This document shows, in pieces, positions 3,001 through 49,993 of a DNA stretch of 64,000 nucleotides (within the stretch, counting starts at the first letter, position 1; the number at the start of each line of letters is the position of its first letter). This DNA is from Patescibacteria group bacterium. Its GTDB lineage: Bacteria; Patescibacteriota; Patescibacteriia; XYB2-FULL-38-15. The notes beneath the pieces were generated by a model. That model did no database searches. It was not told the DNA's origin and saw only the letters and a list, made by a program, of their open reading frames with translations. Location of the stretch: positions 98-64,097 of the forward strand of contig JBAZEY010000001.1 of NCBI GenBank assembly GCA_041653675.1, in the 5' to 3' direction. The position numbers were made by a program, and so were the translations under genes.

Positions 3001-3625
3001 TCACAAAGGTATCTTGACGGTCAGCTTGAACGCTTCTTCTCCTTCCGGCACTCAAACCGCTGGTGAAAATAAGGAAGTCTTAAGACTGAACCTTACTGCC
3101 ACTGGCGATGATGTCACCATCAGAGAACTGGAATTGAAGAACGGCGGTACCGCGACTATCACCGGCACAGGAAGTTTAACTGTGAAGAGTGATGATCTCG
3201 GCACAACTTACGCCACAGTTACTGGCGCCAACTGTAATACTTACAGCGCGTCTGGTAACTTCTGCCTTGAGACTGCTACGACATTGTCAATCGGCTCAAC
3301 CGCCGGAACAGGCGCTTGTACTGCTGTAGCCGTGGCTGATGGCGTTGGCGATAAGTGCTCTGGATACTGGACTGCGGACGACAACCTCCAGGTTGCGGCT
3401 GGCACCACGAAAGTCATCAGAATCTTTGGTGACACGACTGGCGCTCTCTCGACCAAGACCTATCAGATGACTGTTGGTCCAGATGCCACGAGTATGACCA
3501 CCGTTTATGGTGTGACATATCGTGATAGCTCTGGTACTGATGTCGGCGATAGGATTGCTTCGACGTCAAGCTCGTATCCAGCGACCAAGAATCTGCCTCT
3601 CTCTGGCGGAAGCTTGAGCTTCTAA
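1..3625 (+). CDS. Giant secreted/surface repeat protein, 5'-truncated by window edge. The first ~140 aa in the window match the ~125-aa domain that is C-terminal in the four paralogs; a ~1050-aa Thr/Gly/Ala-rich beta-repeat region follows.
   Basis: Open frame 2 runs from base 2 with no stop until 3625. Residues YYGADAKRYVFP...VRPGKLAQVVSMDSPWMVMDPKVYAV align with the C-terminal domains at 6366-6833, 9521-10102, 12601-13181 and 14770-15234. A terminator follows at 3652. Confidence 0.7.
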   Translation, partial: YYGADAKRYVFPYQASYASWYGSTFGAVTTMTDADLIAIPFGGNVTVRPGKLAQVVSMDSPWMVMDPKVYAVEKDNVLRWVKTADVAVAIFGATWESQIVAIPEALLTNYTIGAEINAAGDYTLATQQAVASINECKGLTGVSGTGGLSVALASDTPAAASVPKGAADVYFTKVNFTAGAADATITGLKVTRSGLGIDANLAAIKLFVDGVQRGTAQSLGSIHQATFTLSSNPIVVPAGTTKAVVLAADIAVATAFDQHVLGIALASDITTTATVSGTFPVNGSTMSLVNTSIGTAVISGGPLNPGTTGGDVGIDPAAVGYRFSQIRIAAGSVEPLVVQQIVAIRNGTAASTDVKNIELFNDTAGTSLGTVTGLDSTGRAVFSNLNLTIAKGAYVELSVKADMAGGSGRSISFDVHDGTAFAGMIKGGTFNFGITPTFTNTTAFCKTAATDYTCQTQTINQGYLTVSKSASAPATGKIPTGGTNVPLMAFDFTVAGEPINVTSTVVTYTTADGTGTAGTGIRTNVTNFTLVTAAGTTLAGPKDGDTTHTSVGAETLTITDGYTLPVGTTVVYAKANLSSLMTAGNTVVVTMAAGAITGKGANSAKIVHTTSTGATVPPASAITGNTMTVQGPVLAITTAASPVVGSMVVNAQDQIFAYLDLDASGGGENIRVSSIKVTDTCVAAAGPVACTLYTGLNNLELWGDPDNTDATVVNERLATSNSTAVLGATVTFTFQVPIVVSKAATSRLTLKADVTTVYDEASEGTADTHAFKVNAGGDVTAIGAVTGNTAAKTVSGAGQAQTLRASGTLKVEKAADMPSAVQLVSSSLANEVAKYKFTTQYEPVDVTTISLFCGDNTQAGTNCTLGNIAKLYVYANGVLVGNTAGYSLDATGLASVVLDSGTLVIPKDSYSTITIKADLPDKTQVTTSSGADIQIGIEGAGAAGTTHNEDNTWGDGVHVNNDYYIIANGQSSGAIIDMNTINSLGTTAVSQNFASNPFSAHKGILTVSLNASSPSGTQTAGENKEVLRLNLTATGDDVTIRELELKNGGTATITGTGSLTVKSDDLGTTYATVTGANCNTYSASGNFCLETATTLSIGSTAGTGACTAVAVADGVGDKCSGYWTADDNLQVAAGTTKVIRIFGDTTGALSTKTYQMTVGPDATSMTTVYGVTYRDSSGTDVGDRIASTSSSYPATKNLPLSGGSLSF

Positions 3626-3651
3626 TCTCTGAATTCGTTGATATAGAAAAA

Positions 3652-3687
3652 AGCAGGGCGCCCTCTCGGCGCCCTGCTTTGATTTTG
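3652..3687 (+). terminator. Rho-independent terminator (stem agcagggcgcc/ggcgccctgct followed by TTTGATTTT)
   Basis: Perfect 11-bp GC-rich stem with a 5-nt loop and a T-run, immediately after the stop at 3625. Confidence 0.7.
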
Positions 3688-3704
3688 TGGTAAAATAAAA
3701 TTGT

Positions 3705-3763
3705 CCCCGACTAAAGTCGGGACTCCGGCGAACGATTTGGACTCCTCACTTTAGTGAGGGTTG
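3705..3763. repeat. REP-like hairpin pair upstream of the RAYT gene (cccgac-TAAA-gtcggg + gactcc; cctcac-TTTA-gtgagg + gttg)
   Basis: Two 6-bp-stem, 4-nt-loop palindromes with a conserved GACTCC tail; the same units recur at 4311-4450. Confidence 0.7.
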
Positions 3764-3776
3764 AACACAGTAATAT

Positions 3777-4310
3777 ATGCCATACAGAGAATACCATCCG
3801 CCGCATCTATATTTTGATCAAACAATTTATTTTATAACTTGTCGCACAGTAAATAAAGAAAATTTTTTTGCAACCGATGCGCATAAGAATGTTTTATATT
3901 CCTGTCTAAGGACAGGACTCCAAAATTTTAATATTCCGATTTACGCTTTTGTTATTTTGGATAACCATTATCACTTGTTAATAAAAATACAAAAAGCCGG
4001 AGATTTGCCCCTATTTATTAAATATCTTAATGGTAAAAGTTCTTTTGAATTAAATAAATCGGAGAACGAACAGGGCCGGAAAATTTGGTACCAATATTTT
4101 GATCACACAATCCGCGACGAAGCTGATTTTTGGAAACATTTTAATTACATTCATCAAAATCCGGTAAAACACGGGTTCTGTAAAAATTTGAGGGAAGTTT
4201 TTGGTTATCCCTTTTCAAGCGCGAAAAGTTGGAGTAAAATAAAAGGAGAGGAATGGTTTGATTCTTGTTTTGAGTTGTATCCGATTGTTGATTTTACCGC
4301 GGGAGAATAA
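3777..4310 (+). CDS. REP-associated tyrosine transposase (RAYT; IS200/IS605 TnpA-like Y1 HUH enzyme)
   Basis: HUH motif HYHLL; C-terminal catalytic-Tyr region KIWYQYFDHTIRDEADFWKHFNYIHQNPVKHGF...YPFSS matches the TnpA_REP/Y1 transposase signature (IWQ..F.D..I....YI..NPV..G.V....W.YSS); flanked by REPs. Confidence 0.75.
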   Translation: MPYREYHPPHLYFDQTIYFITCRTVNKENFFATDAHKNVLYSCLRTGLQNFNIPIYAFVILDNHYHLLIKIQKAGDLPLFIKYLNGKSSFELNKSENEQGRKIWYQYFDHTIRDEADFWKHFNYIHQNPVKHGFCKNLREVFGYPFSSAKSWSKIKGEEWFDSCFELYPIVDFTAGE

Positions 4311-4450
4311 CCCCGACTAAAGTCGGAACTCCGCAGTCTCTCGGACTCCTCACTTTAGTGAGGGTTGGATCTACCCCGACTAAAGTCGGAACTCCAAATT
4401 TAATAATTTATTTAAAATTAAATTAAGTACCTGTCTAAAGACAGGACTCC
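4311..4450. repeat. Cluster of four REP-like hairpins (two cccgac/gtcgga units, one cctcac/gtgagg unit, one cctgtc/gacagg unit), each with a GACTCC/GAACTCC tail
   Basis: Hairpins at 4311-4332, 4343-4368, 4374-4395 and 4430-4450. All have a 6-bp stem and TAAA/TTTA loop; the last ends 9 nt before the ATG at 4460. Confidence 0.7.
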
Positions 4451-4459
4451 AAAAAACCT

Positions 4460-5128
4460 ATGACCAAAAAATTGAAAATTATTTTGATCGTCGTCGTTTT
4501 TATTTTAATCGCCGGCGGACTTCTCGTCTGGAAAACTTGGAATTGGCAAGGAAAGATGGGGGATTTAAGAAGTTATGTTACTTCCTTATTTTCTGGAGAA
4601 AAAGTAGAAGAATTACCGGCCGATGTTAAAGCGGCCTATGAAGCCTTGAAAAATGATCCGTCAAATACCAGCGCTTATATAAAAATTGCCGCTTGGAAAC
4701 GGGACCAAGGCCAATTGGCGGACGCGATTAAACTTTATGAATCAGCCTTAGAAGTGAAACCAGACGACACTTTGCTTTTAATGAATAGCGCCGAACTTTA
4801 TACGAGAAACGAGCAATATGCCGAGGCCGCGGGAGCGTATGTGAAAGTCATGGAAAGCAACCCGAAGTGGCTTGCCGCCTATCGCAGTTTAGCCGATCTT
4901 TATCGCTACCAAATGCCGGAAAGAAAAATTGAAATTCCGAGCATTTTAAAAAGGGGACTGGAAGCAAATTCGGAAAATGAAATTTATTTTGTCGCGCCGC
5001 TTGCCATTTATTACAAAGATTTCGGACCGGAAGACGAAGCGATTCGCTGGTACGAGCGGCTGCTTGAACTTGAACCCGGAAATCTCACGGCACAGAAAGA
5101 GTTGGAAGAATTAAAAAATAAACAATAA
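4460..5128 (+). CDS. TPR-repeat protein with N-terminal transmembrane anchor
   Basis: N-terminal hydrophobic helix ILIVVVFILIAGGLLVW followed by repeated 34-aa Ala/Tyr/Leu-rich TPR-like units (AYIKIAAWKRDQGQLADAIKLYESALEVKPDD...). Confidence 0.6.
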   Translation: MTKKLKIILIVVVFILIAGGLLVWKTWNWQGKMGDLRSYVTSLFSGEKVEELPADVKAAYEALKNDPSNTSAYIKIAAWKRDQGQLADAIKLYESALEVKPDDTLLLMNSAELYTRNEQYAEAAGAYVKVMESNPKWLAAYRSLADLYRYQMPERKIEIPSILKRGLEANSENEIYFVAPLAIYYKDFGPEDEAIRWYERLLELEPGNLTAQKELEELKNKQ

Positions 5129-5144
5129 ATAACGGTTAAAAATT

Positions 5145-6833
5145 ATGAAAAAAATCGTCTTCGCTCTGATTTTTCTTTTAACTATTCCTTGGATTCCGGT
5201 AGGAGCCGCGGAAACTATTACCGTCACGAATACTGGCGCGCCGGCCGTGATTTTCTATCCTTCAGAGTTTGATAAATTAGTTATGGATTTTACAATCGCG
5301 CGAACCGACGGAACAGCTGATGTTTTAAACGCCCTGACTTTGCAAAACGACGGCACGGCCTGGGGTTGGGATATTTCTAAAGTTGTTGTTTGGGCTGATG
5401 CCGGAGAGGCTGGCTTTCAGGGAATGGCGGTTGACGAAAAATTGGGCGAAGCAGTGCGCTACGAAACTGGCGGTTACTGGTATTTATCAGGATTGCAAAA
5501 AGCTGTGCCTGCATCCGGCCTTCGGATTTTTGTGAGTATTGAAACCGGATCAAAAGCCGTGATTACAGCCAACAGATCGGTCCAAATGAAAGTGCCTCTT
5601 CTTATTGACGGCGGAACGATTGGCCGGTTTGACCTCGGCGATTCGGGTTTATTTTTAGCCGGAGCCACTGGCACCGCGAGTGGAGTTGTAAATCCTTCAG
5701 CCCAGACCATCTGGGTTTCAAATTATGACACGAGCGCGCCCAAAACCGTGGTTACATCTCCCTCGGCCGGAACGATTATCACCACTTCAACTTTCAAAAT
5801 TACCGGCGTGGCGCGCGATCAAGGCGGTTCAACTTTGGCAACGCTTCAAATTCAAATTAACTCTGGGAGTACGGCCGGTTCTTGGGCAGATGTGACAAAT
5901 ACTGGAACAAATTATTCAACCTGGGAATATAATTGGACAAATATTGCCGACGGAACTTACACAATTAAAACGCAAGGCGCCGACTGGCTCGGCAATTCTG
6001 AAACAATCGGGCAGGGGACTACCGTAACAGTTGACCAAACCGCGACAACTTCGGCCTCCGCTTCTGCTTCCACGGTTTCCGCGACGCCCGCCACTCTTCC
6101 GGCCGACGGTTCAACCAGAACGTTTGTCAGCGTACTAGTTAAAAATTTAGTGGGCAGCGCACTTTCCGGAAAAACAGTTTCTTTAGTTTCCGATCGCTCA
6201 ACCGATAACATTATAGCTACCAAAGAAATAACTGGCGTGGACGGCCTGGCCACTTTTGAAGTAACGGGAACTGCGACCGGAGTTTCAACTTTGACCGCGA
6301 CAGTCGGCATCGTGACTTTAGACCAAAAACCGACTTTAACTTTTACCGCCGTTGCTTTTCACGCGGGAGATTTAATTAAAGGAACTGCGAGCACGGCCGT
6401 TTATTATTACGCAGATAACGGCAGAAGATATATTTTTCCGACCGCGGCGATTTATTCATCTTGGTTTACTGGTTTTTCTTCCATTAAAACAATCCCCGAC
6501 GCGGACCTCGCCGCCGTACCGACCTCCGGCAATGTTACTGTGCGGCCCGGAAAGTTGGTCCAGGTTGTCAGTATGGATACGCCCTGGCGCGTGATGGATC
6601 CGAAAGTTTACGCCGTGAGCCGCGGGGGAGTCTTGCGCTGGGTCAAAACCGCCGACGCGGCAAGCGCGATTTTTGGCACGGAATGGGAGAAGAGTATTGT
6701 CGCCGTGCCAGAGGTGTTTGTTACAAATTATAATTACGGAGCTGATATCAACATTGCCACGGATTACAATTTAGCGGCTGAGCAGGCGGTGGCAACAATT
6801 GACGAAGATAAAAGTGCGAGGGTGACGGATTAA
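5145..6833 (+). CDS. Secreted surface protein: signal peptide, invasin-type Ig domain (Big_1-like), shared C-terminal ~125-aa domain
   Basis: Signal peptide MKKIVFALIFLLTIPWIPVGAAE. The segment SVSATPATLPADGST...SGKTVSLVSDR...TGVDGLATFEVTGTATGVSTLTATV resembles Big_1. C-terminal YYYADNGRRYIFP...VRPGKLVQVVSMDTPWRVMDPKVYAV is shared with the paralogs. Confidence 0.7.
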   Translation: MKKIVFALIFLLTIPWIPVGAAETITVTNTGAPAVIFYPSEFDKLVMDFTIARTDGTADVLNALTLQNDGTAWGWDISKVVVWADAGEAGFQGMAVDEKLGEAVRYETGGYWYLSGLQKAVPASGLRIFVSIETGSKAVITANRSVQMKVPLLIDGGTIGRFDLGDSGLFLAGATGTASGVVNPSAQTIWVSNYDTSAPKTVVTSPSAGTIITTSTFKITGVARDQGGSTLATLQIQINSGSTAGSWADVTNTGTNYSTWEYNWTNIADGTYTIKTQGADWLGNSETIGQGTTVTVDQTATTSASASASTVSATPATLPADGSTRTFVSVLVKNLVGSALSGKTVSLVSDRSTDNIIATKEITGVDGLATFEVTGTATGVSTLTATVGIVTLDQKPTLTFTAVAFHAGDLIKGTASTAVYYYADNGRRYIFPTAAIYSSWFTGFSSIKTIPDADLAAVPTSGNVTVRPGKLVQVVSMDTPWRVMDPKVYAVSRGGVLRWVKTADAASAIFGTEWEKSIVAVPEVFVTNYNYGADINIATDYNLAAEQAVATIDEDKSARVTD

Positions 6834-7243
6834 GAGATTGTGGATAAGTTTCCTCTTGACCAACTCAGTTTTTCGTGATAAAATAAAAGAAGATTAAATT
6901 AATATGAAGTTAACCGTGCTTGTCGTTTCGCAAACGAGCGAATTAGTTTTAAGTTTCTCTAGGGGGAGAGACTTGTTTAATGCTTAATTTTTAGGCATTT
7001 TTTTGTTGTTTAACTAAGAATTTAACTAATAAATTTAATTAAATATAAACCTTACCCTGCGAGAAATTTATTCTGCGGGGAATAAGCGCTACGGCGCTTG
7101 AAATTCCGTCGCTCGTCCCAAATGTTCCGCCGAGGTGGACCACTTGCGGACTCGCTAGGAATTATAAAAAAGGCGAATTTCGGAATTAATTGCGAATAAT
7201 TTTATTCGCAGTTCTCAATTCTTGGTTCGTCGTTTCAAAAAAT

Positions 7244-10102
7244 ATGGCAGAAAGAATCAAAAAAGGCTTTTTCAAAGTATTGCCATTGTCGGTGGTAGTA
7301 TTTTTAGTGTTAGGCTTGGTGGTGTCCTTCACCATGCCAACTCCTCAAAATCTCGGAGTAGAGCCTGTGAAAGCAGCGGTTAACGGCGGCACTACGTCGG
7401 CTCTCTGGCTATTGGACACAAACGCAACTCCAAACGGAAAAATTGATAGAATCACTTTTAGTGTCCTTAACACGAGCGGAGATGCTTGGGCTTTGAATGT
7501 TGCCTTACCTTACGGGTTAAGCGTAACCCAGGCTGGCAATGCGATAACTATTTCGGCAGTTACTATCACGTCGATCGCCACCGCCAATCCAATTACTGTA
7601 CAAGTTGATTTAGATGAAAGTGACGCAGACTTACTCGTGAATACTGACGGTGTTACCACGGGAGCCATAGAATTAATCTATACTCCAGTCCTCTTCGCAA
7701 ACTGCGGCACAACAGCCAGTATTTGTGATACCGATGAAGAAATGAATGTCATTGCGACCGGCGATACCGGAGCAACTGATACTGAAGTTGATAAAGCCGC
7801 GCCGTATATGACTTCCGCAACTTATGGGGATTCCGACGCGGGTGGCAACGTTGACCGAGTTACTTTTGTCTTTTCCGAATCAACAACCTGGACCGCTATG
7901 ACCGCCGCGGATTGGGCATTCGGAGCTGGCGACATCGCTATAACAGGAGATTTTCTTATTGGTGACTGTACTGCCTCTCCATCTATAACCTATGTCTGTA
8001 CTGATGCGGCTAACGCTCATATTACCTCAACCGCCGATAGAACCGGTAAGCAGACTTTAGCGGGTATTGAACCAACCTTTACTTATACCAATAGCACTAA
8101 CGACATCAATGATGGCGCTGCTGCTAATAACACTGCCACTTTTGGGCCAAACTCCTTGGCTGATGGCGCCGCGCCATATTTCCTCTCTGCTATCTATTCA
8201 GATTCTACCGCTGACGGAAAAGTTGACCGCGTGGCTTTTGCCTTTTCTGAAGTGACGACCTTTAACGCGATTACTGCCGCGGACTGGGCATTTGGCGGAG
8301 GTGACATTGTCCTTAGTGGCGACTTTGCTCTCGCTGAATGCGTGGGTTCAGCCACCCTCACCACCGTTACCTGCACTGACGCTGGCACGGGAACAGTTGA
8401 CGCCACTGCTTCAAGAACCGGCAAACAAACTTTAGCAGGCATTGAACCAACTATTACTTATACTAATGGCACTAATGACATTAGAGATGCCTCCTCCAAT
8501 AATACTGCCACTTTTGGTCCAACATCCTTGGTTGATGGCGCAGCTCCAGTCTTTGTGACCACCTCTCCGGCTGACGGCGCGACAGGCGTGGCCCTGGACG
8601 CGAGTATGGTTATTACTTTCTCCGAGACGATGACCGAGGCCTCTGTTACAGGCGCGATTACCAGAGCTCCAGCATTTACTCTCGGCACGGCATCATGGAA
8701 TGCGGCGAGCATAATTCTTACTTACTCCGCTCACGACGCTTTTGCCGGCATGCAGAACTACATCATCACCTTAGCCGGAACAATCGCCTCAGCGGCCGCA
8801 ACTGACGGAAATCTTGGGACTGGTCCGGTAGCAAATCCTTTTGACTTCACTACGGTCGCGGCTTCTAGCGGCGGAGGAGGCGCTGCAACATTACCCGCGT
8901 CTATCACTGTCACAACTCCGAACGGCGGCGAAATTTTGACCGGAGGAGGAACTTACAGCATCACCTGGTCGGCTGTTAGTAATACCGACCCGGTTAGCAT
9001 TTATTATTCAACTGACAGCGGCATAAATTTCCTGAACACCATAGCTACGGACGAAACGAACGATGGTTCTTACACCTGGACTGTTCCGAACGTTGCCACG
9101 AGCGCGGCCAAGGTTAAAGTAGTGAGCGGCAGTTTGAATGATATTTCTGATTCCAACTTTACTATCACTTACTCTACTTCCGCGGTTTCCACTTCCACCT
9201 CCACAGTTGTTGCTTCCCCGACTTCAGTGACGGCCAACGGAACTTCCAAATCAACTGTCACAGTCACCGTCAAAGACTCGAGTTCTAATCTGCTTTCTGG
9301 TAAAGTCGTGACCCTTGCTTCTTCTCGCGGCACTTCCGATACGGTTACGACCGTGACCGGCACAACCGGCACTAACGGCGTCGCCACTTTTGAAGTCAAA
9401 TCAAGCACGGCTGGCACTTCAACTTACACGGCTACTGCCGCGGGCGTAGTTCTAACTCAAACCGCTTCAGTCTCCTTTGCCGCTCCCGGCACGCCTGGTG
9501 AAACTCCAGTTTCTCTTAGTGTCGGAGACTTGATTAAGAGCAGTCTCAGCTCTTCGGTCTATTACTATGGTTCCGACGGCAAACGCCATGTCTTCCCGAA
9601 TGAAAAGACTTACAAGAGTTGGTATGTGGATTTCACCGGCATCAAAACTATTTCCGCCTCTCAACTCCAGGGCATCACTCTTGGCAAAAATGTCACGGTC
9701 CGTCCCGGCACGGTGCTCGTCAAAATCCAGACTGATCCCAAGGTCTACGCCGTTGAACCAGGCGGGCTCCTTCGCTGGGTTCCGACCGAAGCTCGTGCCA
9801 CCACTCTTTACGGCTCCTCTTGGGCCTCAAAGATCATTGATGTTCCAGTCATCTTCTGGGTTGACTACACCTTTGGCACTGACATTACGACCGACAAACA
9901 TCCGACCGGCGCCTTGGTCCAATATACTGGTTCAACTGAAAAATATTACATCCAGGGCACGGAAAAGCGTTTGATCTCCACTGCCGGCTTCACCGCCAAC
10001 AAATTCCAGTTGTCCAATGTCCTTACTGTCCCAACTACCATTACCTACACAACTGGCACGGCTCTCTCAGCCGAGGAGACAGCGCTATCTAGAATTTACT
10101 AG
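7244..10102 (+). CDS. Giant surface protein paralog. Modules: signal anchor, two tandem ~131-aa DGAAP modules, Big_5-like, compact beta-sandwich (GPI/Kre9-like pattern ITWS...YSTDSG...DGSYTWTVP), Big_1-like, shared C-terminal domain.
   Basis: The ORF track starts at 7190, but the conserved N-terminus MAERIKKGFFKVLPLSVVVFLVLGL, identical in pattern to the 10281 gene, begins at ATG 7244. Domain motifs are read directly from the translation. No SD. Confidence 0.7.
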   Translation: MAERIKKGFFKVLPLSVVVFLVLGLVVSFTMPTPQNLGVEPVKAAVNGGTTSALWLLDTNATPNGKIDRITFSVLNTSGDAWALNVALPYGLSVTQAGNAITISAVTITSIATANPITVQVDLDESDADLLVNTDGVTTGAIELIYTPVLFANCGTTASICDTDEEMNVIATGDTGATDTEVDKAAPYMTSATYGDSDAGGNVDRVTFVFSESTTWTAMTAADWAFGAGDIAITGDFLIGDCTASPSITYVCTDAANAHITSTADRTGKQTLAGIEPTFTYTNSTNDINDGAAANNTATFGPNSLADGAAPYFLSAIYSDSTADGKVDRVAFAFSEVTTFNAITAADWAFGGGDIVLSGDFALAECVGSATLTTVTCTDAGTGTVDATASRTGKQTLAGIEPTITYTNGTNDIRDASSNNTATFGPTSLVDGAAPVFVTTSPADGATGVALDASMVITFSETMTEASVTGAITRAPAFTLGTASWNAASIILTYSAHDAFAGMQNYIITLAGTIASAAATDGNLGTGPVANPFDFTTVAASSGGGGAATLPASITVTTPNGGEILTGGGTYSITWSAVSNTDPVSIYYSTDSGINFLNTIATDETNDGSYTWTVPNVATSAAKVKVVSGSLNDISDSNFTITYSTSAVSTSTSTVVASPTSVTANGTSKSTVTVTVKDSSSNLLSGKVVTLASSRGTSDTVTTVTGTTGTNGVATFEVKSSTAGTSTYTATAAGVVLTQTASVSFAAPGTPGETPVSLSVGDLIKSSLSSSVYYYGSDGKRHVFPNEKTYKSWYVDFTGIKTISASQLQGITLGKNVTVRPGTVLVKIQTDPKVYAVEPGGLLRWVPTEARATTLYGSSWASKIIDVPVIFWVDYTFGTDITTDKHPTGALVQYTGSTEKYYIQGTEKRLISTAGFTANKFQLSNVLTVPTTITYTTGTALSAEETALSRIY
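7778..8566 (+). repeat. Intragenic tandem duplication: two ~393-bp (131-aa) DGAAP modules
   Basis: DKAAPYMTSATYGDSDAGGNVDRVTFVFSE...RTGKQTLAGIEPTFTYTN and DGAAPYFLSAIYSDSTADGKVDRVAFAFSE...RTGKQTLAGIEPTITYTN are near-identical at the aa level. Confidence 0.7.
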
Positions 10103-10122
10103 AACTTAGATAGATTAGAAAA

Positions 10123-21991: not shown

Positions 21992-23215
21992 ATGAAAATT
22001 TGTCTCATCTCCAATTTGTATCCGCCGATTTCCCGCGGTGGAGCGGAAAGGGTGGCCGAACGCGTGGCGCGGGGTTTAGTCGCCTCTGGCCCCCACACCA
22101 AAAATTTTGGCGAGGGGGTAAACCACGAGGTTTTTGTTATTTCTACAAAACCGTGGGACGGGTGGAAAAGTTTTAAGGCCGCCGTGGCAGAAGAGAACGG
22201 AATAAAAGTTTATCGGTTTTATCCGGCGAATGTTTTTTATTATTTAAACGATTATAAGCAAGGGGTTTTTTCACGAATGATCTGGCACTTTTTTGATATG
22301 TTTAATTGTCAGAGTGCGAGGGCAGTGAAAAAGATTTTGCGCGCCGAAAAACCAGATTTAGTTTTGACGCATAATTTGATGGGAATCGGATTTTTAATTC
22401 CCCGCGCGATAAAAAAATTAAAAATAAAACATATTCACACTTTGCACGACGTGCAGCTTTCCGTGCCGAGCGGTTTGATTTTAAAAGGGCGAGAAAATAA
22501 TTGGGAGCAGCGGACATGGCTTCGTAAACTCTATGAAGCAGCGTGCAGACGCCTTTTTGCTTCGTCCGACGTCGTCGTTTCGCCGTCAAAATGGCTTTTG
22601 GATTTTTATGCGCAAAAAGGATTTTTTAAAAAATCAAAAAAAGAAGTTTTGCCAAATCCGGTGGAGCGGATTTATCCGGCCGGGATTCCGATGGACAATA
22701 GCATTTTAAAACTTCTTTACCTTGGGCAAATTGAAGAGCATAAAGGAATTTTGTTTTTAGTGAAAGTTTTAAAAAATTTAGACATCAATTTTAAACTCCA
22801 CATCGCTGGCGATGGATCAGAAATGGAAGAGCTAAAAAAAATGGTTGATGGAGATAATCGATTTGTGATCCATGGAAAATTGGTTGGTGAAGAGGCAGTC
22901 AAGATTTTTAATTTAGTTGATTTGACGGTTGTTCCTTCGCTCTGTTATGAAAATTCACCGAGCGTGATTTACGAAAGTTTAGCCGCCGGCGTGCCGGTTT
23001 TGGCCGCGAAAATTGGAGGAGTGGCAGAACTTGTCCATGATAACGAAAATGGTTTCACTTTTGAGGCGGGGAACGCCGAAGATTTGGCGCGCGCCCTGAA
23101 ACAAGCTGCCGCCAACCGTGAAAGTTTACAAAAAATGCGGCCAGCTGCCGCAAGGTCAGTGGAGGATTTTAAGATTGAAAAATACATCAGCCGTTTGTTA
23201 GAAATTATTAAGTAG
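21992..23215 (+). CDS. Family 4 glycosyltransferase (GT-B)
   Basis: ENSPSVIYESLAAGVPVLAAKIGGVAELV motif; start overlaps the upstream stop (TAAAATG). Confidence 0.7.
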   Translation: MKICLISNLYPPISRGGAERVAERVARGLVASGPHTKNFGEGVNHEVFVISTKPWDGWKSFKAAVAEENGIKVYRFYPANVFYYLNDYKQGVFSRMIWHFFDMFNCQSARAVKKILRAEKPDLVLTHNLMGIGFLIPRAIKKLKIKHIHTLHDVQLSVPSGLILKGRENNWEQRTWLRKLYEAACRRLFASSDVVVSPSKWLLDFYAQKGFFKKSKKEVLPNPVERIYPAGIPMDNSILKLLYLGQIEEHKGILFLVKVLKNLDINFKLHIAGDGSEMEELKKMVDGDNRFVIHGKLVGEEAVKIFNLVDLTVVPSLCYENSPSVIYESLAAGVPVLAAKIGGVAELVHDNENGFTFEAGNAEDLARALKQAAANRESLQKMRPAAARSVEDFKIEKYISRLLEIIK

Positions 23216-23219
23216 CATT

Positions 23220-23708
23220 ATGAGTTACTATATTATAATTCGCGGTCCTTTGGGGTGTGGAAAATCTACAATCGCTAGAAAAATATCAGAAAAATTAAAT
23301 GCAGAATATTTTGAGATTGATAAAATTCTTGATGAGAATAATTTAACAGAGGATAAAGAAGATGGATATATTTCGCAGAAAAGTTTTACTAAAGCTAACG
23401 AAATTATCGCCCCAAAAGCTAAAAATTTTTTAGAAAAAGATATTTCAGTAATTTTTGACGGAAACTTTTACTGGAAGTCTCAGATAGACGATTTAATAAA
23501 ACGATTAAAATTTTCGCATTACGTTTTTACGCTTAAAGCGCCGCTCAAGGTTTGTATAGAACGAGACCAGAGCAGAGAAAAAACACACGGCAAAGACGCA
23601 GTGAAAGCGGTTTATAAGAAATCGACAGAATTTGATTATGGGATTATTATTGATATAACTAAAACGGCGGATAAAGTTGTCGAAGAAATTGTTTCCCATT
23701 TATTTTAA
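23220..23708 (+). CDS. P-loop NTPase / predicted kinase (AAA_33-like)
   Basis: Walker A GPLGCGKST near the N-terminus; small 162-aa nucleotide-kinase-like fold. Confidence 0.55.
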   Translation: MSYYIIIRGPLGCGKSTIARKISEKLNAEYFEIDKILDENNLTEDKEDGYISQKSFTKANEIIAPKAKNFLEKDISVIFDGNFYWKSQIDDLIKRLKFSHYVFTLKAPLKVCIERDQSREKTHGKDAVKAVYKKSTEFDYGIIIDITKTADKVVEEIVSHLF

Positions 23709-23717: not shown

Positions 23718-23768
23718 GCCACCATTGAGTTGGTGGCGGGCGGCCGTCGGAGTTTCCGGCGGTTTTTG
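23718..23768. terminator. Convergent terminator region: hairpin gccacc-attgagt-tggtggc, then hairpin ccgucgg-aguuu-ccggcgg + T-run
   Basis: The second hairpin, the 24-mer ccgtcggagtttccggcggttttt at 23744-23767, is repeated exactly at 24437-24460. Confidence 0.6.
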
Positions 23769-23778
23769 TTTTCGGGTG

Positions 23779-24060
23779 TTAGTCCTCCACGATGTCAGGC
23801 ATCAGAAGACATGGGTAATGGCCAGGATAGCGTCGGATTTTCCCCCAGCCGGCATTGAGATGAACCGTCACCTCAGAGAAATCATTCTTAACCACGGTAG
23901 CTTTTGCGGTCATGTTGATCAGGCCGCCAAACCAGCAGAAAAGCACAACAGTCACTTGTTGGCCGATAAGTGCCGTACTCAGGGTGGTGATGTGGTCGCA
24001 GCTTTCCTCCCTTCGGTCAGCCAGAATTTTCTCCATTTGGGCTCTCTTTTTGGGCGTCAT
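23779..24060 (-). CDS. Small protein of unknown function, paralog B (93 aa), GC-rich, C-terminus YPCLLMPDIVED
   Basis: ATG at 24060 is preceded by AAAAGGAGG-acag. The protein shares about 30% identity with the adjacent paralog, including M.KIL at the N-terminus, AKATV, and C.LMP..VED at the C-terminus. GC is about 55% versus about 38% in the flanks. Confidence 0.6.
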   Translation of the reverse strand: MTPKKRAQMEKILADRREESCDHITTLSTALIGQQVTVVLFCWFGGLINMTAKATVVKNDFSEVTVHLNAGWGKIRRYPGHYPCLLMPDIVED

Positions 24061-24080
24061 CTGTCCTCCTTTTCGAGCCG

Positions 24081-24371
24081 TCAATCCTCCACAGTCGGCA
24101 TCAGGAAGCATGGGCAATCCAGAGCAAAGCGGCGCGGGTTCGCGGGTTCCTTGAAGAGGCGAAGTAGGATGCCGTCCTCGGGCCGAGACAAGTCGCGCTC
24201 GATTACCGTGGCTTGGGCTGCCTTGAAACGGCGCGGATCCCACCAGGGCGTGGTAATGGCGATAGTCACAAGTCCACCAGGAGGAACAACTCCGAGATCG
24301 GTCAGCCAGTCGCCCTCTTCCATGTGTCTTGTGAGGAGGACGTTCATTTCGTCTTTCAGAATTTTGATCAT
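24081..24371 (-). CDS. Small protein of unknown function, paralog A (96 aa), C-terminus CPCFLMPTVED
   Basis: ATG at 24371 is preceded by AAGGAGG-ggttg. The 97-aa ORF-track start at 24374 is a TTG one codon upstream. Tandem with paralog B; GC-rich. Confidence 0.6.
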   Translation of the reverse strand: MIKILKDEMNVLLTRHMEEGDWLTDLGVVPPGGLVTIAITTPWWDPRRFKAAQATVIERDLSRPEDGILLRLFKEPANPRRFALDCPCFLMPTVED

Positions 24372-24398
24372 CAACCCCTCCTTGTTTGGTGACCTATT

Positions 24399-24427
24399 AT
24401 TTAATCATTGATTTCGTTTTTTGTCAA
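24399..24427 (-). promoter_or_regulatory. Candidate sigma70-type promoter for the two small paralogs (-35 TTGACA, 17-nt spacer, -10 TTAAAT)
   Basis: Minus-strand ttgacaaaaaacgaaatcaatgattaaat, about 25 nt upstream of the SD. Confidence 0.4.
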
Positions 24428-24436
24428 TAAGAAAAA

Positions 24437-24460
24437 CCGTCGGAGTTTCCGGCGGTTTTT
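24437..24460. terminator. Bidirectional terminator hairpin (ccgtcggagtttccggcggttttt); exact second copy of the 24-mer at 23744
   Basis: A-run before and T-run after. It terminates the minus-strand membrane-protein gene ending at 24471 and bounds the GC-rich islet. Confidence 0.6.
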
Positions 24461-24470
24461 TTAATTTTAT

Positions 24471-26603
24471 CTAAAATTGATATTTAAAAATCCAAATTTT
24501 TCCGTTGCCAATTTCCATAACTTCGTCGGCGGTTGGCTTGGCGGTTTCAAGAATTTTATCGGAGTCGGTCCAGTATTTATTTAAGACAAAATAGACAAGT
24601 TTTACGCCAGTTAAGTTTGCCGCTTCTTTGACCGTGGCCCGCGACGGCGTTTGATAAACCATTTTTAAATAATATTGATAAAGCGGATCGCCGGTTGGGA
24701 TTGGATAATAAAAATATGGCCCAAAATATTTGTTAAATCCGAATTCTTTTATTGCCGCGGCGGAAACGCTTTGATTTGCCAAGACAACATAATCCGCACC
24801 GGCGGCGTCGGCATCAATCGCATGGACAGTGTTTAAATCAAAAAGAGAAACAGAATAGCCGCGGTCAATTTGATAATCTTCGCCGTCGTCTTTAGGATAA
24901 GAATAATAAAGAGAAAAAGTCAGAAAAGCGGCAAAAATTAAAATGAAAAATAATTTTAGTCCGCGGCTCTTGCCCCCCATTAATTTTTCAAAGAATTTAA
25001 AAAGAGCGAAAAGAAAGAGGGGAATCAGAAAATAAAAACTGATTTCTAGAATGCGGCTAGGATAAACTCCTTGTTCATATTTGATGAGTGAAGGAAAATC
25101 AACAAAAAGTTTTAACAAAATATAATTGGTAATCAGGGCGAAGAAAGCGGTCGGGTACACTAAAATTGAGGGTAGATTTTTTTTCAATAAAAAATAACCG
25201 GAGAAGCCGACGATTAAAAGAAGAAAAGAAATATTTTGTCCGTAGACGTAGGCCAAGTCGTAGAGCGGCCTGAAATGATTTACCCAAAGGGGCAGAGACC
25301 AGCCGAGAGCTCCCCAAAAATTTCCCGCAGCTTCGATGGTTTTTAGAGAAAAAATTGAAGCTGGTCCTTCAAAAAACAAGAATGCTGCCAGAAAAACTAA
25401 AGGAATGGCCACGGCAGCAAGAACCACGCTCATAATAAAAACAACATGACGGACGAATTCAAAAATGCCCTGCTGTTTTTTGAAAAAAGTAAAAACGGTG
25501 AGAAGAAGGAGAAAAACGAGAGCGGGAATGCCGGCTAGAGGATGAATTAAAAGCGCGGTAAAGCCCAAAAACCAAAGAGCGGTCAGGGGAAGTTCGCGGC
25601 GTAGGGCGAGAATGCCAAAAAAAACAATAATAAGGAGGAAGAAGTTGGCGAGCCCTTGCGGCGTCGTGACGATGAAAGCCGTGAAGGGTAAAAGAAAAAC
25701 AAGAAGAGCAGCGAGGCTCGCGCCGGGAGTTTTGTTTCTGTCGGTATAAGAGTGAATAGAAAAATAAATTGTAGCTGGAAGAATTGTAGAAATCAAAGTC
25801 GGTAAAAGCAGGCGGTCTACCCAAATAACCGAAGTGTGGAAAATTTTTGCCAAAAAAACGACAAGTGAATATTGGCCGAGATAATAAAAAGGTTTTGGCA
25901 AAATAAAACCTTGGGCTAAAATAATTTTTTCCGTGGCTTGGTGGATAAAAGGATCAAAGCCATAACCGATGCGGTAAACAAAAAGCGCGAGGGCTACCGT
26001 TAAAAATGTGTGCACGGAAATTAAAATCAGGTTTAACCCCTCTTTTTGGCTTTTCAAAACAAAATAAAGCAGGGCCAAAGTTGCCGTAAAATAGTTTATG
26101 AAAAAATCAAAAGGCAGAATTTTCCAGGGAGTACGGATGGCTTCAACTGTCCCGGCAGCCAAGAGATGGCGGATGTTCAAGATCGTTAAAAAAATAAACG
26201 CCGCCAAAAGGAGCGTCGTGCGTAAAATATGAGGATTGATTTGGAGGGGGTTAAAATGTTTTTCCGATTCAGGATGATTGCCAAAACGTAAAAAGGGGAG
26301 CAGGGCGATTGGCGGCAGAAGTACGAGTGAGGCGAGCGCTAAAGTATTTAATTTATAAAAAAAGTAAATCAAGGCGCCAAAAAGAGAAATTCCAGCCAAA
26401 AGAAAAAGAAATCCGTAGAGAAATTTGAAAAGATCTGGCCGGCCACGGAAGAGAATGGAACCCAGTAAAAATCCGTAAAAAATCAAGTACGCCGGGCCGA
26501 AAGTTAGGCCTAAAAGCGGGCTTTCCCAAAGGAAAAAATTGCCGAGCAAGCCGACTATTAAAATCAAAGAAATGATGATACAATAAGGTAATCTGAGGGT
26601 CAT
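24471..26603 (-). CDS. Large polytopic membrane protein (about 14 TM helices plus a C-terminal soluble domain); putative GT-C-type glycosyltransferase (YfhO/ArnT/PMT-like)
   Basis: Hydrophobicity pattern across the first ~480 aa, location in the glycosylation gene cluster. Family assignment is tentative. Confidence 0.5.
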   Translation of the reverse strand: MTLRLPYCIIISLILIVGLLGNFFLWESPLLGLTFGPAYLIFYGFLLGSILFRGRPDLFKFLYGFLFLLAGISLFGALIYFFYKLNTLALASLVLLPPIALLPFLRFGNHPESEKHFNPLQINPHILRTTLLLAAFIFLTILNIRHLLAAGTVEAIRTPWKILPFDFFINYFTATLALLYFVLKSQKEGLNLILISVHTFLTVALALFVYRIGYGFDPFIHQATEKIILAQGFILPKPFYYLGQYSLVVFLAKIFHTSVIWVDRLLLPTLISTILPATIYFSIHSYTDRNKTPGASLAALLVFLLPFTAFIVTTPQGLANFFLLIIVFFGILALRRELPLTALWFLGFTALLIHPLAGIPALVFLLLLTVFTFFKKQQGIFEFVRHVVFIMSVVLAAVAIPLVFLAAFLFFEGPASIFSLKTIEAAGNFWGALGWSLPLWVNHFRPLYDLAYVYGQNISFLLLIVGFSGYFLLKKNLPSILVYPTAFFALITNYILLKLFVDFPSLIKYEQGVYPSRILEISFYFLIPLFLFALFKFFEKLMGGKSRGLKLFFILIFAAFLTFSLYYSYPKDDGEDYQIDRGYSVSLFDLNTVHAIDADAAGADYVVLANQSVSAAAIKEFGFNKYFGPYFYYPIPTGDPLYQYYLKMVYQTPSRATVKEAANLTGVKLVYFVLNKYWTDSDKILETAKPTADEVMEIGNGKIWIFKYQF

Positions 26604-31873: not shown

Positions 31874-32446
31874 ATGGCAGTGATCACGTTGGAGGGGGCC
31901 GTGCGCAGGCTGGACGGCGCATTCGTTTACCTCGAACCAGAGGAGGTGGCGGCGAGAAAACTCTCCGAGGGCAAAGGGGTCGAGCTCTGGTACTTCGATC
32001 CGGCGACCGGACGAATCGCTCGTGGCGATGGCAAGTTCTTCGACATCCGCATGGTGGACCGCGGCGGGTGGGGGCAGATCGTGCTCTACGAGGAGCCGAA
32101 CGTGCCGCAGTCGGCGGATCCCACTATGCCGCGCATCGTGGGCCACGTCGTGATCGAGACGACCCGCAGGTACGGCGCACTGCTCGTACGCGTGCACAAG
32201 GCCACGGGCCTGAACGGCGGGATTCTGGAGCTCAAGCCGTCCAGCATCTCCAAGGGCGAACTGGCCGAGAGAGGTCTCGAGCCTGTCGGCTATTTCGAGG
32301 CCAGTCCCCAGCGCATCATGGGCATGATCGCCGTCTACCTCATGGAGACGGACTTCCCGGAAGAGGAAGGCAGGACTGTGCTCCAGTTCTTCAAGCACTC
32401 CACCGACGGGCGGTCGCTCGCGGCCCTGGCCAAGGCCGGCCTGTAG
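31874..32446 (+). CDS. Hypothetical protein (190 aa) in GC-rich islet 2
   Basis: About 62% GC coding sequence with high-GC third positions. The overlapping 296-aa frame-1 ORF and the 213-aa antisense ORF are Arg-rich artefacts. AGGAAAG precedes the ATG by 9 nt. Confidence 0.5.
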   Translation: MAVITLEGAVRRLDGAFVYLEPEEVAARKLSEGKGVELWYFDPATGRIARGDGKFFDIRMVDRGGWGQIVLYEEPNVPQSADPTMPRIVGHVVIETTRRYGALLVRVHKATGLNGGILELKPSSISKGELAERGLEPVGYFEASPQRIMGMIAVYLMETDFPEEEGRTVLQFFKHSTDGRSLAALAKAGL

Positions 32447-32782: not shown

Positions 32783-32824
32783 ATTGGGGAAAAGCCAGCG
32801 CATTGGCTGGTGAAGGAGGAGAAG

Positions 32825-33211
32825 ATGGAAGAACAAGGAGTGACTAAGCATGTTCCCGATCGAGCAGTCGTGAGTCTCGTAAATCGGATCCTTCTGCGGG
32901 CGATTGAGCTCAAGGCGGATGAGATCTACGTCGGACCCGACGAAGAAGGAATCGCGGCCAGCGAATTTGCTATTAGCTATTTGGTCAACGGCAAACTGTA
33001 TTCGCGGGAGGCGATGATGAGGTCGACGTGTGTGAATATCATCGCCCACTTCAAAGAGCTGGGCAGGCTCAATCACGCGAAACGGGACACGCGGCAGGAG
33101 GGTGATTTCCTGACGAAGGGCGAGGGTCGGGAATGGATTTTCCGTATCACTGTCGAACCGGCACCGCCGTTCGGTGAGAAGGTGATCGCCAAGCTCGTTC
33201 GGCGTTCCTAG
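32825..33211 (+). CDS. N-terminal (N2) domain fragment of a PilB/GspE/PilT-class secretion ATPase, stand-alone or truncated; no Walker A/ATPase core
   Basis: VVSLVNRILLRAIELKADEIYVGPDEE...ISYLVNGKLYSRE...REWIFRITVEPAPPFGEKVIAKLV matches the start of the T2SSE ATPase family (vklvn.il..Ai...ASDIHiEp...vRyRiDG.L...dlRVstlPt.yGEkvVlRlL). SD AAGGAGGA lies 5 nt before ATG 32825. The ORF stops about 15 residues before where Walker A would be. Confidence 0.55.
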   Translation: MEEQGVTKHVPDRAVVSLVNRILLRAIELKADEIYVGPDEEGIAASEFAISYLVNGKLYSREAMMRSTCVNIIAHFKELGRLNHAKRDTRQEGDFLTKGEGREWIFRITVEPAPPFGEKVIAKLVRRS

Positions 33212-39008: not shown

Positions 39009-39011
39009 ATT

Positions 39012-39038
39012 AAAAAAGAGGCACACCGCCTCTTTTTT
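39012..39038. terminator. Bidirectional terminator (aagaggc acacc gcctctt flanked by A-run and T-run)
   Basis: Serves the convergent ctpA (+) gene and the Cys-rich ORF (-). Confidence 0.6.
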
Positions 39039-39053
39039 GACTTTAAGATTTAA

Positions 39054-39323
39054 TTAAGCAAAAGTGTTTTGGTAGTGAGCGGCGGTTTTAGCGCTCGCCT
39101 GAATTGTGCGAGTACAATCTGGTTCATGCGCCCCGCATTTGGCGCAAAGATACCAATCACAAGACCGGCAGGTAGAGGAAAACCTCCCATCGATTGGTTC
39201 GCCGCAATTCCAACAATGGGTGATTTCCCATTCGCTGCCGCAAGCGGAACAGGACATGGTGTTCCGAAGCAGCCCCTCGCCGCGAAGGGCTCTCTCGCCG
39301 CAATAGCACAGATCTTGATCCAT
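39054..39323 (-). CDS. Small Cys-rich protein (89 aa; CxC + 4 CxxC pairs), putative multi-zinc-ribbon protein
   Basis: MDQDLCYCGERALRGEGLLRNTMSCSACGSEWEITHCWNCGEPIDGRFSSTCRSCDWYLCAKCGAHEPDC. GC about 52% versus about 38% background. ORF-track start 39347 is a GTG; ATG 39323 is preferred. Confidence 0.4.
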   Translation of the reverse strand: MDQDLCYCGERALRGEGLLRNTMSCSACGSEWEITHCWNCGEPIDGRFSSTCRSCDWYLCAKCGAHEPDCTRTIQASAKTAAHYQNTFA

Positions 39324-39432
39324 ATGTTTAATCTTTAAATTTCCCACCTTCTATTATATGTTTTTTTTATTACGAAAAGATGAAGATGGCTATTTTTTTC
39401 TTTTTAAGTTTTTTGTTATAATATACTGATAT

Positions 39433-48819: not shown

Positions 48820-49467
48820 CTATCGCTTGTCGGCGACCACACAGTTGCGTCCCGCGCATTTGGCCTCGTAAAGCGCCCTGTCGGCCTCTTCGAGTCCTTC
48901 TTTGGTTTTTGCCTCAGTCACGCCGAGACTGATCGTCACCGAGAAAGTCGATTTGCCGAAGGAAAAGGGCACTGCCGCCACAGCCTTGCGGAGCCGTTCG
49001 GCGACCAAAGCCGCGTTCTCTGGAGTTGCTCCCCGGAGAATGATGACGAATTCGTCCCCACCCATTCGTCCGATCACGTCATACGGGCGAAGAGCTGTGC
49101 GGAAACGTCTGATGATCTCCTTTAGGATCTCATCTCCGGCCGGGTGTCCGTATGTGTCGTTGATTCCCTTGAAGATGTCGACGTCAATTGCGATCACGCT
49201 AAGTGGTGAAGTGAAGCGTTTGGAGAAAGCGAGCTCATTTACAACTGCTAACTCGACTCCGGCGCGATTCAGCGCACCGGTCAAGGGATCGACCCTAGCC
49301 AATTCTTGCAGTTCGTCATTCTTGGCGGTGAGCCTCACAATTTCTGCCCCGAGAGCCCTGATCCGCGTTTCGCTGTCTGCCCGCTCCTCGTAGGCCGCCG
49401 CGAGCGCGATCCGTAGTTGTCGCACGGGAAGATCTCGCACCTTCTTGGAAACCCGCCTTTTTGCCAT
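48820..49467 (-). CDS. Stand-alone GGDEF-domain diguanylate cyclase with N-terminal coiled-coil segment
   Basis: RMGGDEFVIIL active-site motif with conserved upstream DxD (AIDVDIFKGINDTYGHPAGDEIL). GC about 57%. Strong SD GAAGGAGG-tttc-ATG. Confidence 0.75.
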   Translation of the reverse strand: MAKRRVSKKVRDLPVRQLRIALAAAYEERADSETRIRALGAEIVRLTAKNDELQELARVDPLTGALNRAGVELAVVNELAFSKRFTSPLSVIAIDVDIFKGINDTYGHPAGDEILKEIIRRFRTALRPYDVIGRMGGDEFVIILRGATPENAALVAERLRKAVAAVPFSFGKSTFSVTISLGVTEAKTKEGLEEADRALYEAKCAGRNCVVADKR

Positions 49468-49755: not shown

Positions 49756-49819
49756 GTTATCATCGCTCGTTCGGAAATGAAATAAATTTCATTTCTCTCG
49801 CTCGCTTGATAATAAAAAA
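49756..49819. repeat. ~65-bp hairpin repeat, copy R2
   Basis: tgttatcatcgctcgttcggaaatgaaataaatttcatttctctcgctcgcttgataataaaaaat. It abuts the 3' end of tRNA-Lys and lies inside the 210-bp segment bounded by the tRNA-derived direct repeats. Confidence 0.6.
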
Positions 49820-49892: not shown

Positions 49893-49993
49893 ATAATCAA
49901 ATTTTAAAAAAAGAACGAGGAAGTCGTTAATAGCCGTTTTAGTCTTAATTTGATATAATAATACCAAGGCATTTTATTTTTGGCAAGGGTTTT

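Follow-up and report, generated by a model that had tools for sequence, protein, structure and literature searches.

A GC-rich orphan gene family with its own predicted transcription signals in the glycan cluster of a Falkowbacteria-like genus

Organization of the GC-rich islet

We analysed a 64,000-nt stretch of contig JBAZEY010000001.1 from a metagenome-assembled genome (MAG) that is listed in NCBI as "Patescibacteria group bacterium"; this whole stretch is referred to as the window. The subject of this study is a GC-rich islet at positions 23744-24460, which carries two small minus-strand genes, A and B. The genome belongs to a Falkowbacteria-like genus of the candidate phyla radiation (CPR; Patescibacteria), and the locus around the islet is a cell-envelope glycan cluster. 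An earlier note, made from the letters of the sequence, had described A and B as tandem paralogs of no recognised family with strong translation signals and two identical 24-mers on either side, and had read the islet as a recently acquired two-gene cassette, possibly a toxin/antitoxin or immunity pair. The descriptive part was largely borne out by the analyses reported here. The cassette with direct-repeat ends and the toxin/antitoxin pair were not, and we arrived instead at an old resident gene, A, behind which B would have been added in one strain. The features of the islet are as follows.

24371-24081, minus strand: gene A, 96 aa (MFA5412934.1), resident and syntenic member of a genus-restricted orphan family
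24060-23779, minus strand: gene B, 93 aa (MFA5412933.1), deep-branching member of the orphan family, window strain only
24399-24427, minus strand: predicted promoter of the A(-B) unit, with -35 TTGACA at 24427-24422, a 17-nt spacer ending in TGA (extended -10) and -10 TTAAAT at 24404-24399
24377-24383, minus strand: Shine-Dalgarno sequence (SD) AAGGAGG of gene A, conserved in relatives
24065-24071, minus strand: SD AAGGAGG of gene B, within the 20-nt A-B spacer
23718-23737, minus strand: hairpin H1, GCCACCA-loop-UGGUGGC followed by a U-run, predicted terminator of A-B (terminator scan and RNA fold)
23742-23767, plus strand: hairpin H2, containing the left 24-mer (23744-23767), predicted terminator of the operon of the GT4 glycosyltransferase and kinase genes (terminator scan)
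24430-24462, no strand assigned: hairpin H2', containing the right 24-mer (24437-24460), an A-tract, a stem-loop and a T-tract (terminator scan and folds)

The islet is a self-contained and strongly signalled transcription unit, located in the convergent gap between the GT4 operon and a gene for a 710-aa membrane protein. Its GC content is 52.6%, and that of both coding sequences (CDSs) together is 54.5%, compared to 39.8% and 40.2% in the 5-kb flanks. The reported jump in composition is therefore real, though it rises from a background of ~40% and not of ~38% as had been stated. Only 2.8% of the 717-nt intervals within 15-64 kb are as GC-rich as the islet, and all of them fall in three islets, at 23.7 kb, 31.6-32.6 kb and 48.7-48.9 kb. 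Assembly chimerism, which had been raised as a concern, is excluded because an ENA contig (L140) and a Logan contig (L141), both from other samples, are 100% identical to the window over A, B and the two 24-mers.

A and B share 31% identity over 88 residues (pairwise E = 5e-8) and the C-terminal motif P-C-x-x-x-P-x-V-E-D, which confirms that the two minus-strand open reading frames (ORFs) are paralogous.

The family gene is a single-copy resident of one junction in the genus

We compared the locus with ~20 related contigs, including L001-L018 and L144, the comparison being limited to what the databases hold. The family gene adjoins the convergent GT4 gene in every related contig found (L001-L004, L006-L018 and L144). 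It also follows the gene of the 710-aa membrane protein wherever that side is readable, with L005 as the exception. The syntenic contigs include Candidatus Falkowbacteria GCA_016214745.1 and the 886-kb chromosome GCA_965231095.1. In all the relatives the family gene is single-copy, and neither an empty site nor a second genomic context for the family was found among these contigs.

The closest relative is L144, whose A differs at 6 residues only. Gene B, an AAA_33 kinase gene at the end of the GT4 operon and the second 24-mer are all private to the window strain, and L144 has none of the three. Homologs of A thus hold the same place in the same lineage as a single gene, which contradicts the recent acquisition of a two-gene cassette; no such homologs were found for B.

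The family is tiny and amounts to about ten 90% clusters in 5.8 billion. A profile search of 1.84 billion representatives returned 5 matches, comprising four true clusters and one doubtful; the latter, P0006 (235 aa, E = 3e-4), is a hydrophobic protein of repetitive sequence for which no locus is recorded, and it was taken as a false positive. A second search, of 5.8 billion, gave nine family clusters (at the level of 90% clusters). No member outside this CPR genus was found in the 1.84 billion representatives or the 5.8 billion clusters. Searches of Pfam, NCBIfam, PHROGs and PADLOC with A and B gave no meaningful match, and none of all 10 members matched Pfam at E <= 10, in agreement with the earlier failure to recognise a family.

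Scans of IMG/VR with A, P0008 and B revealed no relatives, and the match in a plasmid search had E = 0.5. Matches obtained by tblastn in Burkholderia and Ralstonia jumbo phages were weak and antisense to annotated genes, and were discarded as spurious. The metagenome scan with B gave only L019, where the match runs antisense inside a real 369-aa gene, and it was likewise rejected. Low-stringency blastn of the islet against the window did not detect a template copy of the diversity-generating retroelement type.

The family encodes a protein

The members are 92-99 aa long and have ten residues in common (M1, M9, L13, E18, E19, G32, V35, P87, C88 and P92). Of the reading frames, only the sense frame is uninterrupted in all nine sequences checked, and the antisense frames contain stops in most relatives. 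The plus-strand 228-aa ORF across the islet is not conserved and is an artefact, as had been suspected. Ratios of nonsynonymous to synonymous substitution rates (dN/dS) within allele classes are 0.14-0.34, and the differences between A and its L144 counterpart are distributed 5/1/15 over the three codon positions. A dN/dS below 0.35, the single conserved frame and the confident fold described below argue for a protein product.

A structured non-coding RNA as the product found no support: an Rfam search of the window, the islet and the related loci gave only tRNAs and sub-threshold terminator-like matches, and third-position changes dominate with a dN/dS below 0.35.

Translation and transcription signals

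AAGGAGG stands 5 to 7 nt upstream of the starts of both A and B, and wherever the sequence upstream of a family gene was read, it contained an SD. For ~55 other genes of the window, that of ribosomal protein bL9 included, no SD was found within the 20 nt preceding the start; the statement that the neighbours lack this signal was therefore correct. The only other correctly placed AAGGAGG sequences of the window are at 32813 and 49473, both before genes of the other GC-rich islets.

Several host genes (starts at 39433, 61804 and 59246, for example) have a TATAAT-like box ~10 nt or less from the ATG, such as ttgttataatatactgatatATG before bL9. This arrangement suggests leaderless or SD-independent initiation in host genes.

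Gene B is without a promoter of its own. The perfect -35 TTGACA that had been noticed upstream was found at 24427-24422 on the minus strand, and the predicted layout of TTGACA, a 17-nt spacer and TGATTAAAT is conserved in the relatives. A five-sequence alignment shows no variation in the -35 hexamer or in the TGATTAA core, both of which also occur in L005, L006, L007, L009 and L144. This promoter was not listed by a simple promoter scan because position 2 of its -10 element is T and not A.

The 24-mers are parts of predicted terminators

The 24-mer CCGTCGGAGTTTCCGGCGGTTTTT occurs exactly at 23744 and at 24437, as the earlier note had it. No further copy exists in the window at <=3 mismatches, and none was found in 100 shuffles. 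These copies have to be seen together with the hairpins around A and B. H1, the stem of which is conserved in all relatives, is predicted to end the A-B transcript because its U-run lies on the minus strand. Read on the plus strand, H2 forms 10 pairs, one of them G·U, and a T-run follows; its minus-strand form contains an A·C mismatch and lacks a U-run. The relatives have H2, or a close variant of it, in single copy, 13 nt past the stop of the family gene, and two copies were seen only in the window strain. H2' should be able to terminate in both directions because its stem-loop lies between an A-tract and a T-tract; it would end the 710-aa membrane-protein gene and insulate the promoter of A. 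In the relatives, its position is taken by another hairpin, of the CGCCGG…CTGGCG type with compensatory variation, between identical flanks. The H2-type stem-loop pattern was detected in at least 120 unrelated genomes (scan with one genome per species), and this type of hairpin is thus a generic terminator motif.

The left 24-mer is thus part of a conserved plus-strand terminator, and the right copy, seen only in the window strain, stands in place of another terminator hairpin. If both are terminators as predicted, they are not recombination scars of a cassette, and the direct-repeat boundaries proposed for the islet fall away. The identity of the two implies that one terminator was copied over another 693 nt away, an event that could not be tied to the acquisition of B.

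A recently acquired mobile two-gene cassette, with 24-bp direct repeats marking its ends as after integration at a 24-bp core site, would account for the exact 24-mers bracketing a GC-rich segment and for the foreign-looking composition and SDs. It would also fit the fact that the junction is a hotspot of strain-specific inserts, namely the kinase gene in the window strain, a tyrosine recombinase gene in L144, a 310-nt insert in L009-L016 and GC-rich genes in L005. However, A and its promoter are present in every relative, where only the left hairpin is of the 24-mer type, and L144 has A but neither B nor the second 24-mer. Moreover, the family is found in one context only, the hairpin is of the generic type just described, and the window contains no integrase next to the islet. 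L144 is the one genome in which a tyrosine recombinase, Xer-like and sub-threshold, sits at the junction. We consider this reading highly improbable.

Four allele classes between conserved flanks

The family members fall into four classes: A (window, L001-L004 and L144), P4/7/8/9/10, P5 and B. Members of different classes are 36-45% identical, compared to 80-94% for the membrane and GT4 proteins encoded in those genomes. The same pattern was observed along the locus, where flanks, promoter and terminators are 70-100% identical and the interior of the CDS is only 33-56% identical. Within the A class, in comparison with L144, nucleotide identity is 92.8% for the gene and 90.8% for the flank. Between A and P5, dS is 0.7-0.86 (0.95 in the flank), dN is about six times that of the flank and dN/dS is 0.6-0.7; between A and the P4 class, dS is saturated. 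These discrete jumps could reflect bursts of amino-acid change, replacement by divergent alleles or paralogs, or both. Because four very different classes lie between nearly invariant regulatory flanks, the product is likely to have a variable partner. A loop of sequence RDLSRP.DG is conserved in two classes and has been lost in P5 and B.

The jumps between classes bear on a further possibility, that the family is a single-gene conflict factor. It could be an immunity protein directed at a polymorphic toxin that is encoded elsewhere, or a binder that counters phages or defence systems, under diversifying or balancing selection, with B providing a second specificity. Such a role would fit classes only 36-45% identical between flanks that are 70-100% identical, and the A-P5 comparison, in which dN/dS reaches 0.6-0.7 at a dS like that of the flanks. 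It would also fit the stacking of two classes in the window strain, the strong autonomous expression signals and the small, apparently non-enzymatic barrel predicted below. On the other side, neither a partner toxin or phage target nor a match to any defence model was identified, the within-class rate is no faster than in the flanks, and the sequences are too few for a site-wise test of selection. A conflict-type role is the most attractive specific version of the binder function proposed below, and we regard it as a possibility well short of probable.

Arrival of gene B

B has kept the invariant core of the family and has lost the His-Met of the HMEE motif as well as the DLSRP loop. Its identity to all other classes is 31-40%, dS between A and B is saturated, and the databases contain only identical copies of it. 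The 3' ends of A and B, together with ~10 nt downstream, show 75% DNA identity over 52 nt, and B would therefore have been added as a unit of SD, CDS and short tail. The two genes are only 31% identical, yet B is missing in a strain with a 94% identical A; B is therefore not a recent duplicate of A. B, the sole member of the fourth class, would have been inserted behind A in the window strain after import from an unsampled relative. Such an import is more parsimonious than repeated loss and is the most likely course of events.

That A and B are small, 20 nt apart, co-transcribed and preceded by strong SDs, with sequences hypervariable between strains, had invited their interpretation as a toxin/antitoxin or toxin-immunity pair. 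The two genes are nevertheless homologous (31% identity, E = 5e-8) and share the invariant residues of the family, whereas the toxin/antitoxin pairs known to us consist of two unrelated proteins. The pairing is confined to the window strain, every other genome having a single copy. PADLOC, Pfam and NCBIfam gave no toxin, antitoxin or defence match, and the model contains no toxin-type domain. As the genes are paralogous, their pairing is not conserved and no family matches, we regard this interpretation as the least probable of those weighed here.

The predicted product is a small β-barrel

An AlphaFold2 model from a ten-sequence alignment (pLDDT 85.4, pTM 0.75) shows a helix (residues 3-16) and, after it, six strands. 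The product is confidently predicted to consist of this N-terminal helix and a small β-barrel of the SH3/Tudor/KOW-like kind with an invariant Pro-Cys…Pro tail. The model has the five- to six-stranded, strongly bent antiparallel barrel of this class and superposes on known SH3-like members. Foldseek searches with the model against the PDB and viral models (BFVD) gave nothing below E = 0.004, the PDB matches having E >= 0.01, so that this check, too, assigned no family, and the best hit of a PDB profile search had E = 0.75. On the model the fold class is established; homology to any one family is not. From these features we infer a ~95-aa cytosolic protein, a putative non-enzymatic binder of a protein or nucleic-acid partner. 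Most probably, the product serves as a binding module in the cytosol that is expressed in abundance and has a variable or external partner.

The partner might be sought in the glycan pathway itself. In such a role the product would be an accessory or regulator, that is, a cytosolic partner of GT4 enzymes or of the 710-aa protein, or else an acceptor of glycosylation, as EF-P domain I is for EarP. Its strictly conserved position within the glycan cluster (RmlD, NTP transferase, FdtA, GT2, GT4 and PMT_2) and the RDLSRP.DG loop of two classes would be in keeping with this idea. But the gene forms a separate transcription unit of foreign composition with terminators on both sides, and the loop is lost in P5 and B. 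The match to EF-P is also no better than that to dozens of unrelated SH3-like barrels, and a component of the pathway should show the same degree of conservation as its partners (80-94%). We find a role in the pathway rather improbable.

Foreign composition and probable slow amelioration

GC content at third codon positions (GC3) is 0.61-0.75 in nine family genes (0.61-0.65 in A and B), compared to 0.39-0.43 in the flanking genes and 0.36 in bL9. With GC3 well above the ~0.41 of the host and, in addition, SDs only at islet genes, the composition and translation signals look foreign, in accordance with the earlier description. We polarised third-position changes by majority within trios in a codon alignment. 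Counts of GC→AT against AT→GC changes were 18:7 in the A class and 34:11 in the P4 class, i.e. about 2.6-3:1. The same count in the GT4 and membrane genes gave 76:81 and 122:156. Neutral decay from a GC3 of 0.65 toward an equilibrium of 0.41 was calculated to give about 2.7:1.

These data would be explained if the family had been acquired once, before the diversification of the genus, from a GC-rich donor with SD-led genes. The family gene would then have been fixed at the junction of the GT4 and membrane-protein genes, and its composition would have been decaying slowly toward that of the host. A single old acquisition with slow amelioration is the simplest and most likely reading of the sequence data.

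Alternatively, the gene could be native, its GC content being kept high either through selection acting on the mRNA or, at a recombination hotspot, through GC-biased gene conversion; in a variant of this explanation the product is an RNA. A high GC3 in all members in spite of a between-genome dS of about 1, a locus that looks recombinogenic and an islet 2 (31874-32446) that loses GC more slowly than neutral decay predicts can be cited in its favour. It is opposed by the excess of GC→AT changes in the family, which matches neutral decay, by an SD foreign to the usual initiation of this genome, and by the low GC3 of the highly expressed bL9. The RNA variant, in turn, is opposed by the signs of protein coding (dN/dS below 0.35, one frame, a confident fold) and by the empty Rfam search. 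We judge a native origin to be very improbable.

Taken together, an old foreign resident gene A, 24-mers that belong to terminators, an imported B and a binder as the product form the best overall explanation, which we hold to be probable though by no means certain. Several points weigh against it. The exact 24-nt identity of the two hairpins has no explanation in it, and with a tyrosine-recombinase gene at the same junction in L144, site-specific recombination at the hairpins is conceivable. The promoter and terminator activities are predictions from sequence. The flux counts are small (p = 0.04 for the A class taken alone), and polarisation by majority-rule parsimony is biased toward common→rare changes at high divergence. 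In islet 2 the flux was 37:16, though its GC3 of 0.85 predicts about 8:1; since this is far below the prediction, pure neutral decay is perhaps not the whole story for the islets. Only about a dozen genomes of the genus make up the sample. Finally, no donor lineage or outside homolog was found in the 1.84 billion representatives and 5.8 billion clusters, and the case for a foreign origin is therefore built from composition and translation signals.

A more elaborate version would treat the old foreign genes (the A family, islet 2 and a GGDEF gene) as a GC-rich, SD-led expression class maintained in a non-SD genus. The A family would then be a conflict binder whose alleles recombine via the conserved flanks, and B a captured second specificity. 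We think this combination unlikely.

Neighbouring genes and other observations in the window

The genes next to the islet are the following.

21992-23215, plus strand: GT4 glycosyltransferase gene, convergent neighbour in all relatives, 80-94% identical between genomes
23220-23708, plus strand: AAA_33/KTI12-like P-loop kinase gene (Pfam and NCBIfam matches), strain-specific, at the end of the glycosyltransferase operon before H1/H2
24471-26603, minus strand: gene of a polytopic 710-aa membrane protein without family match, upstream neighbour in relatives where readable, except L005

The membrane protein is 84.6-94% identical between genomes. The kinase gene (GC 31%, GC3 0.26) is far more AT-rich than the host. 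It is not present in L001, L003, L006, L007, L009 and L144 and is hence private to the window strain among the relatives seen; the C-terminus of the GT4 protein is changed beside the appended gene. The glycan cluster around the islet comprises GT2, GT4, DUF2304, PMT_2, HIT, NUDIX, FdtA, RmlD and NTP-transferase genes.

The inserts found at the junction in other genomes are of several kinds. In L009 (700-1075; also in L010, L012-L014 and L016), a GC-rich insert of ~310 nt without an ORF lies between the GT4 stop and H1. Copies from different loci are almost 100% identical, while the family genes next to them differ at a dS of 0.25. At its start the insert has AAAGGAGG and a mini-ORF of 8 codons, and at its end a 14-bp hairpin with a U-run. 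Its fold z-score is about -3, and it has no Rfam match. It could be a structured RNA or a small mobile element. A hammerhead reading of its CUGAUGAG was dropped, as Rfam was empty. In L006 (10330-10470), a Falkowbacteria MAG, a GC-rich run of hairpins of ~130 nt (gggagggg… and ctctccccgaaggggagagg) is inserted between the GT4 stop and H1. In L144, an AT-rich gene (1709-2701, GC 30%) for a Xer-like tyrosine recombinase stands where the window has the kinase gene; the usual second His of its catalytic motif is apparently missing. In L005 (1-460), GC-rich SD-led ORFs (one of 107 aa and one partial) without similarity to the window are located upstream of the family promoter, in the position of the membrane gene.

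The other two islets also carry genes. Islet 2 (plus strand) is a 190-aa ORF of 65% GC and GC3 0.85 with a purine-rich leader and no match in Pfam or NCBIfam. In L006 and L007 a syntenic copy between FdtA and RmlD is 60-73% identical, compared to 83-93% for its flanks. Close to it, at 32825-33211 on the plus strand, is a 128-aa ORF (~53% GC) preceded by the AAGGAGG at 32813. The ORF matches only the N-terminal third of the T2SSE ATPase model (E = 2.7e-6) and looks like a fragment of a foreign gene. The third islet (48820-49467, minus strand) is a GGDEF diguanylate cyclase gene (57% GC, GC3 0.64) with the AAGGAGG at 49473; a tRNA-Lys gene (49819-49893) lies ~350 nt from it.

Two more segments of the window deviate in composition. 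Positions 1-15300 form a block of ~48-51% GC with very large proteins (1177, 970, 966 and 626 aa) and AT-rich spacers. Several of these proteins have N-terminal hydrophobic segments and Big_1, Big_5 or invasin-D3 domains, and the relatives share the 626/630-aa and S8-peptidase genes. An intergenic segment at 39010-39350 (53% GC) contains only implausible ORFs on both strands and a sub-threshold Rfam match to isrK (E = 0.01); it may be an unrecognised RNA gene.

Discussion

On the reading that we prefer, an old foreign gene resident at one junction, the islet is a clear example of such a gene fixed in the reduced genome of an episymbiont, and it adds an unannotated protein family with a confidently predicted fold. 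It also brings out a contrast within one genome between a handful of GC-rich, SD-led genes and ~55 genes without an SD. If a separate translation regime or a conflict function were behind it, this contrast would offer a handle on CPR biology. The outcome further corrects two over-readings, terminator hairpins taken as the ends of a cassette and a pair of paralogs taken as a toxin/antitoxin system.

Among the known systems, integron cassettes resemble the islet in being small ORFs of odd composition beside conserved hairpins, and L144 has a tyrosine recombinase at the junction. In contrast to integron cassettes, the islet has a promoter of its own, ordinary T-run terminators and one fixed context, and there is no array. 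The recombinase of L144 is below every NCBIfam cut-off, that of integron integrase included, and is not present in the window. Type II toxin/antitoxin systems share with A and B the small size, adjacency and co-transcription of the two genes, but A and B are paralogs, are paired in one strain and match no family of such systems.

The polymorphic immunity and allelic-cassette loci are closer in their general pattern, a hypervariable CDS in discrete classes between conserved flanks and one strain with two of them. Unlike those loci, the islet has no linked toxin and belongs to no known immunity family, and it is the pattern by itself that suggests exchange between strains.

In its predicted fold, the product can be compared with the SH3-like barrels of the C-terminal Tudor domain of UvrD/PcrA, the RNA polymerase-interacting domain of CarD, EF-P domain I, the uL2 barrel and the KOW domain of Spt5/NusG. 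The likeness comes from the model, and no sequence similarity to these barrels was detectable in Pfam, NCBIfam and the PDB profile search. The family differs from them by its additional N-terminal helix, the invariant P-C-x-x-x-P tail and its occurrence as a stand-alone protein.

The phage morons are autonomous units of promoter, gene and terminator with an atypical GC content (PMC3594210). The islet departs from them in that it is located in a chromosomal glycan cluster that has no phage genes close by and not in a prophage, is fixed across the genus and not sporadic, and belongs to a family for which no phage, plasmid or IMG/VR homolog was found. It resembles them in having its own predicted promoter and terminator, a GC content of 54.5% against 40%, and a small accessory ORF placed between co-linear genes. 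We therefore regard the islet as most likely an old, horizontally acquired and moron-like orphan gene, which belongs to a tiny and new family and is predicted to encode an SH3-like barrel.

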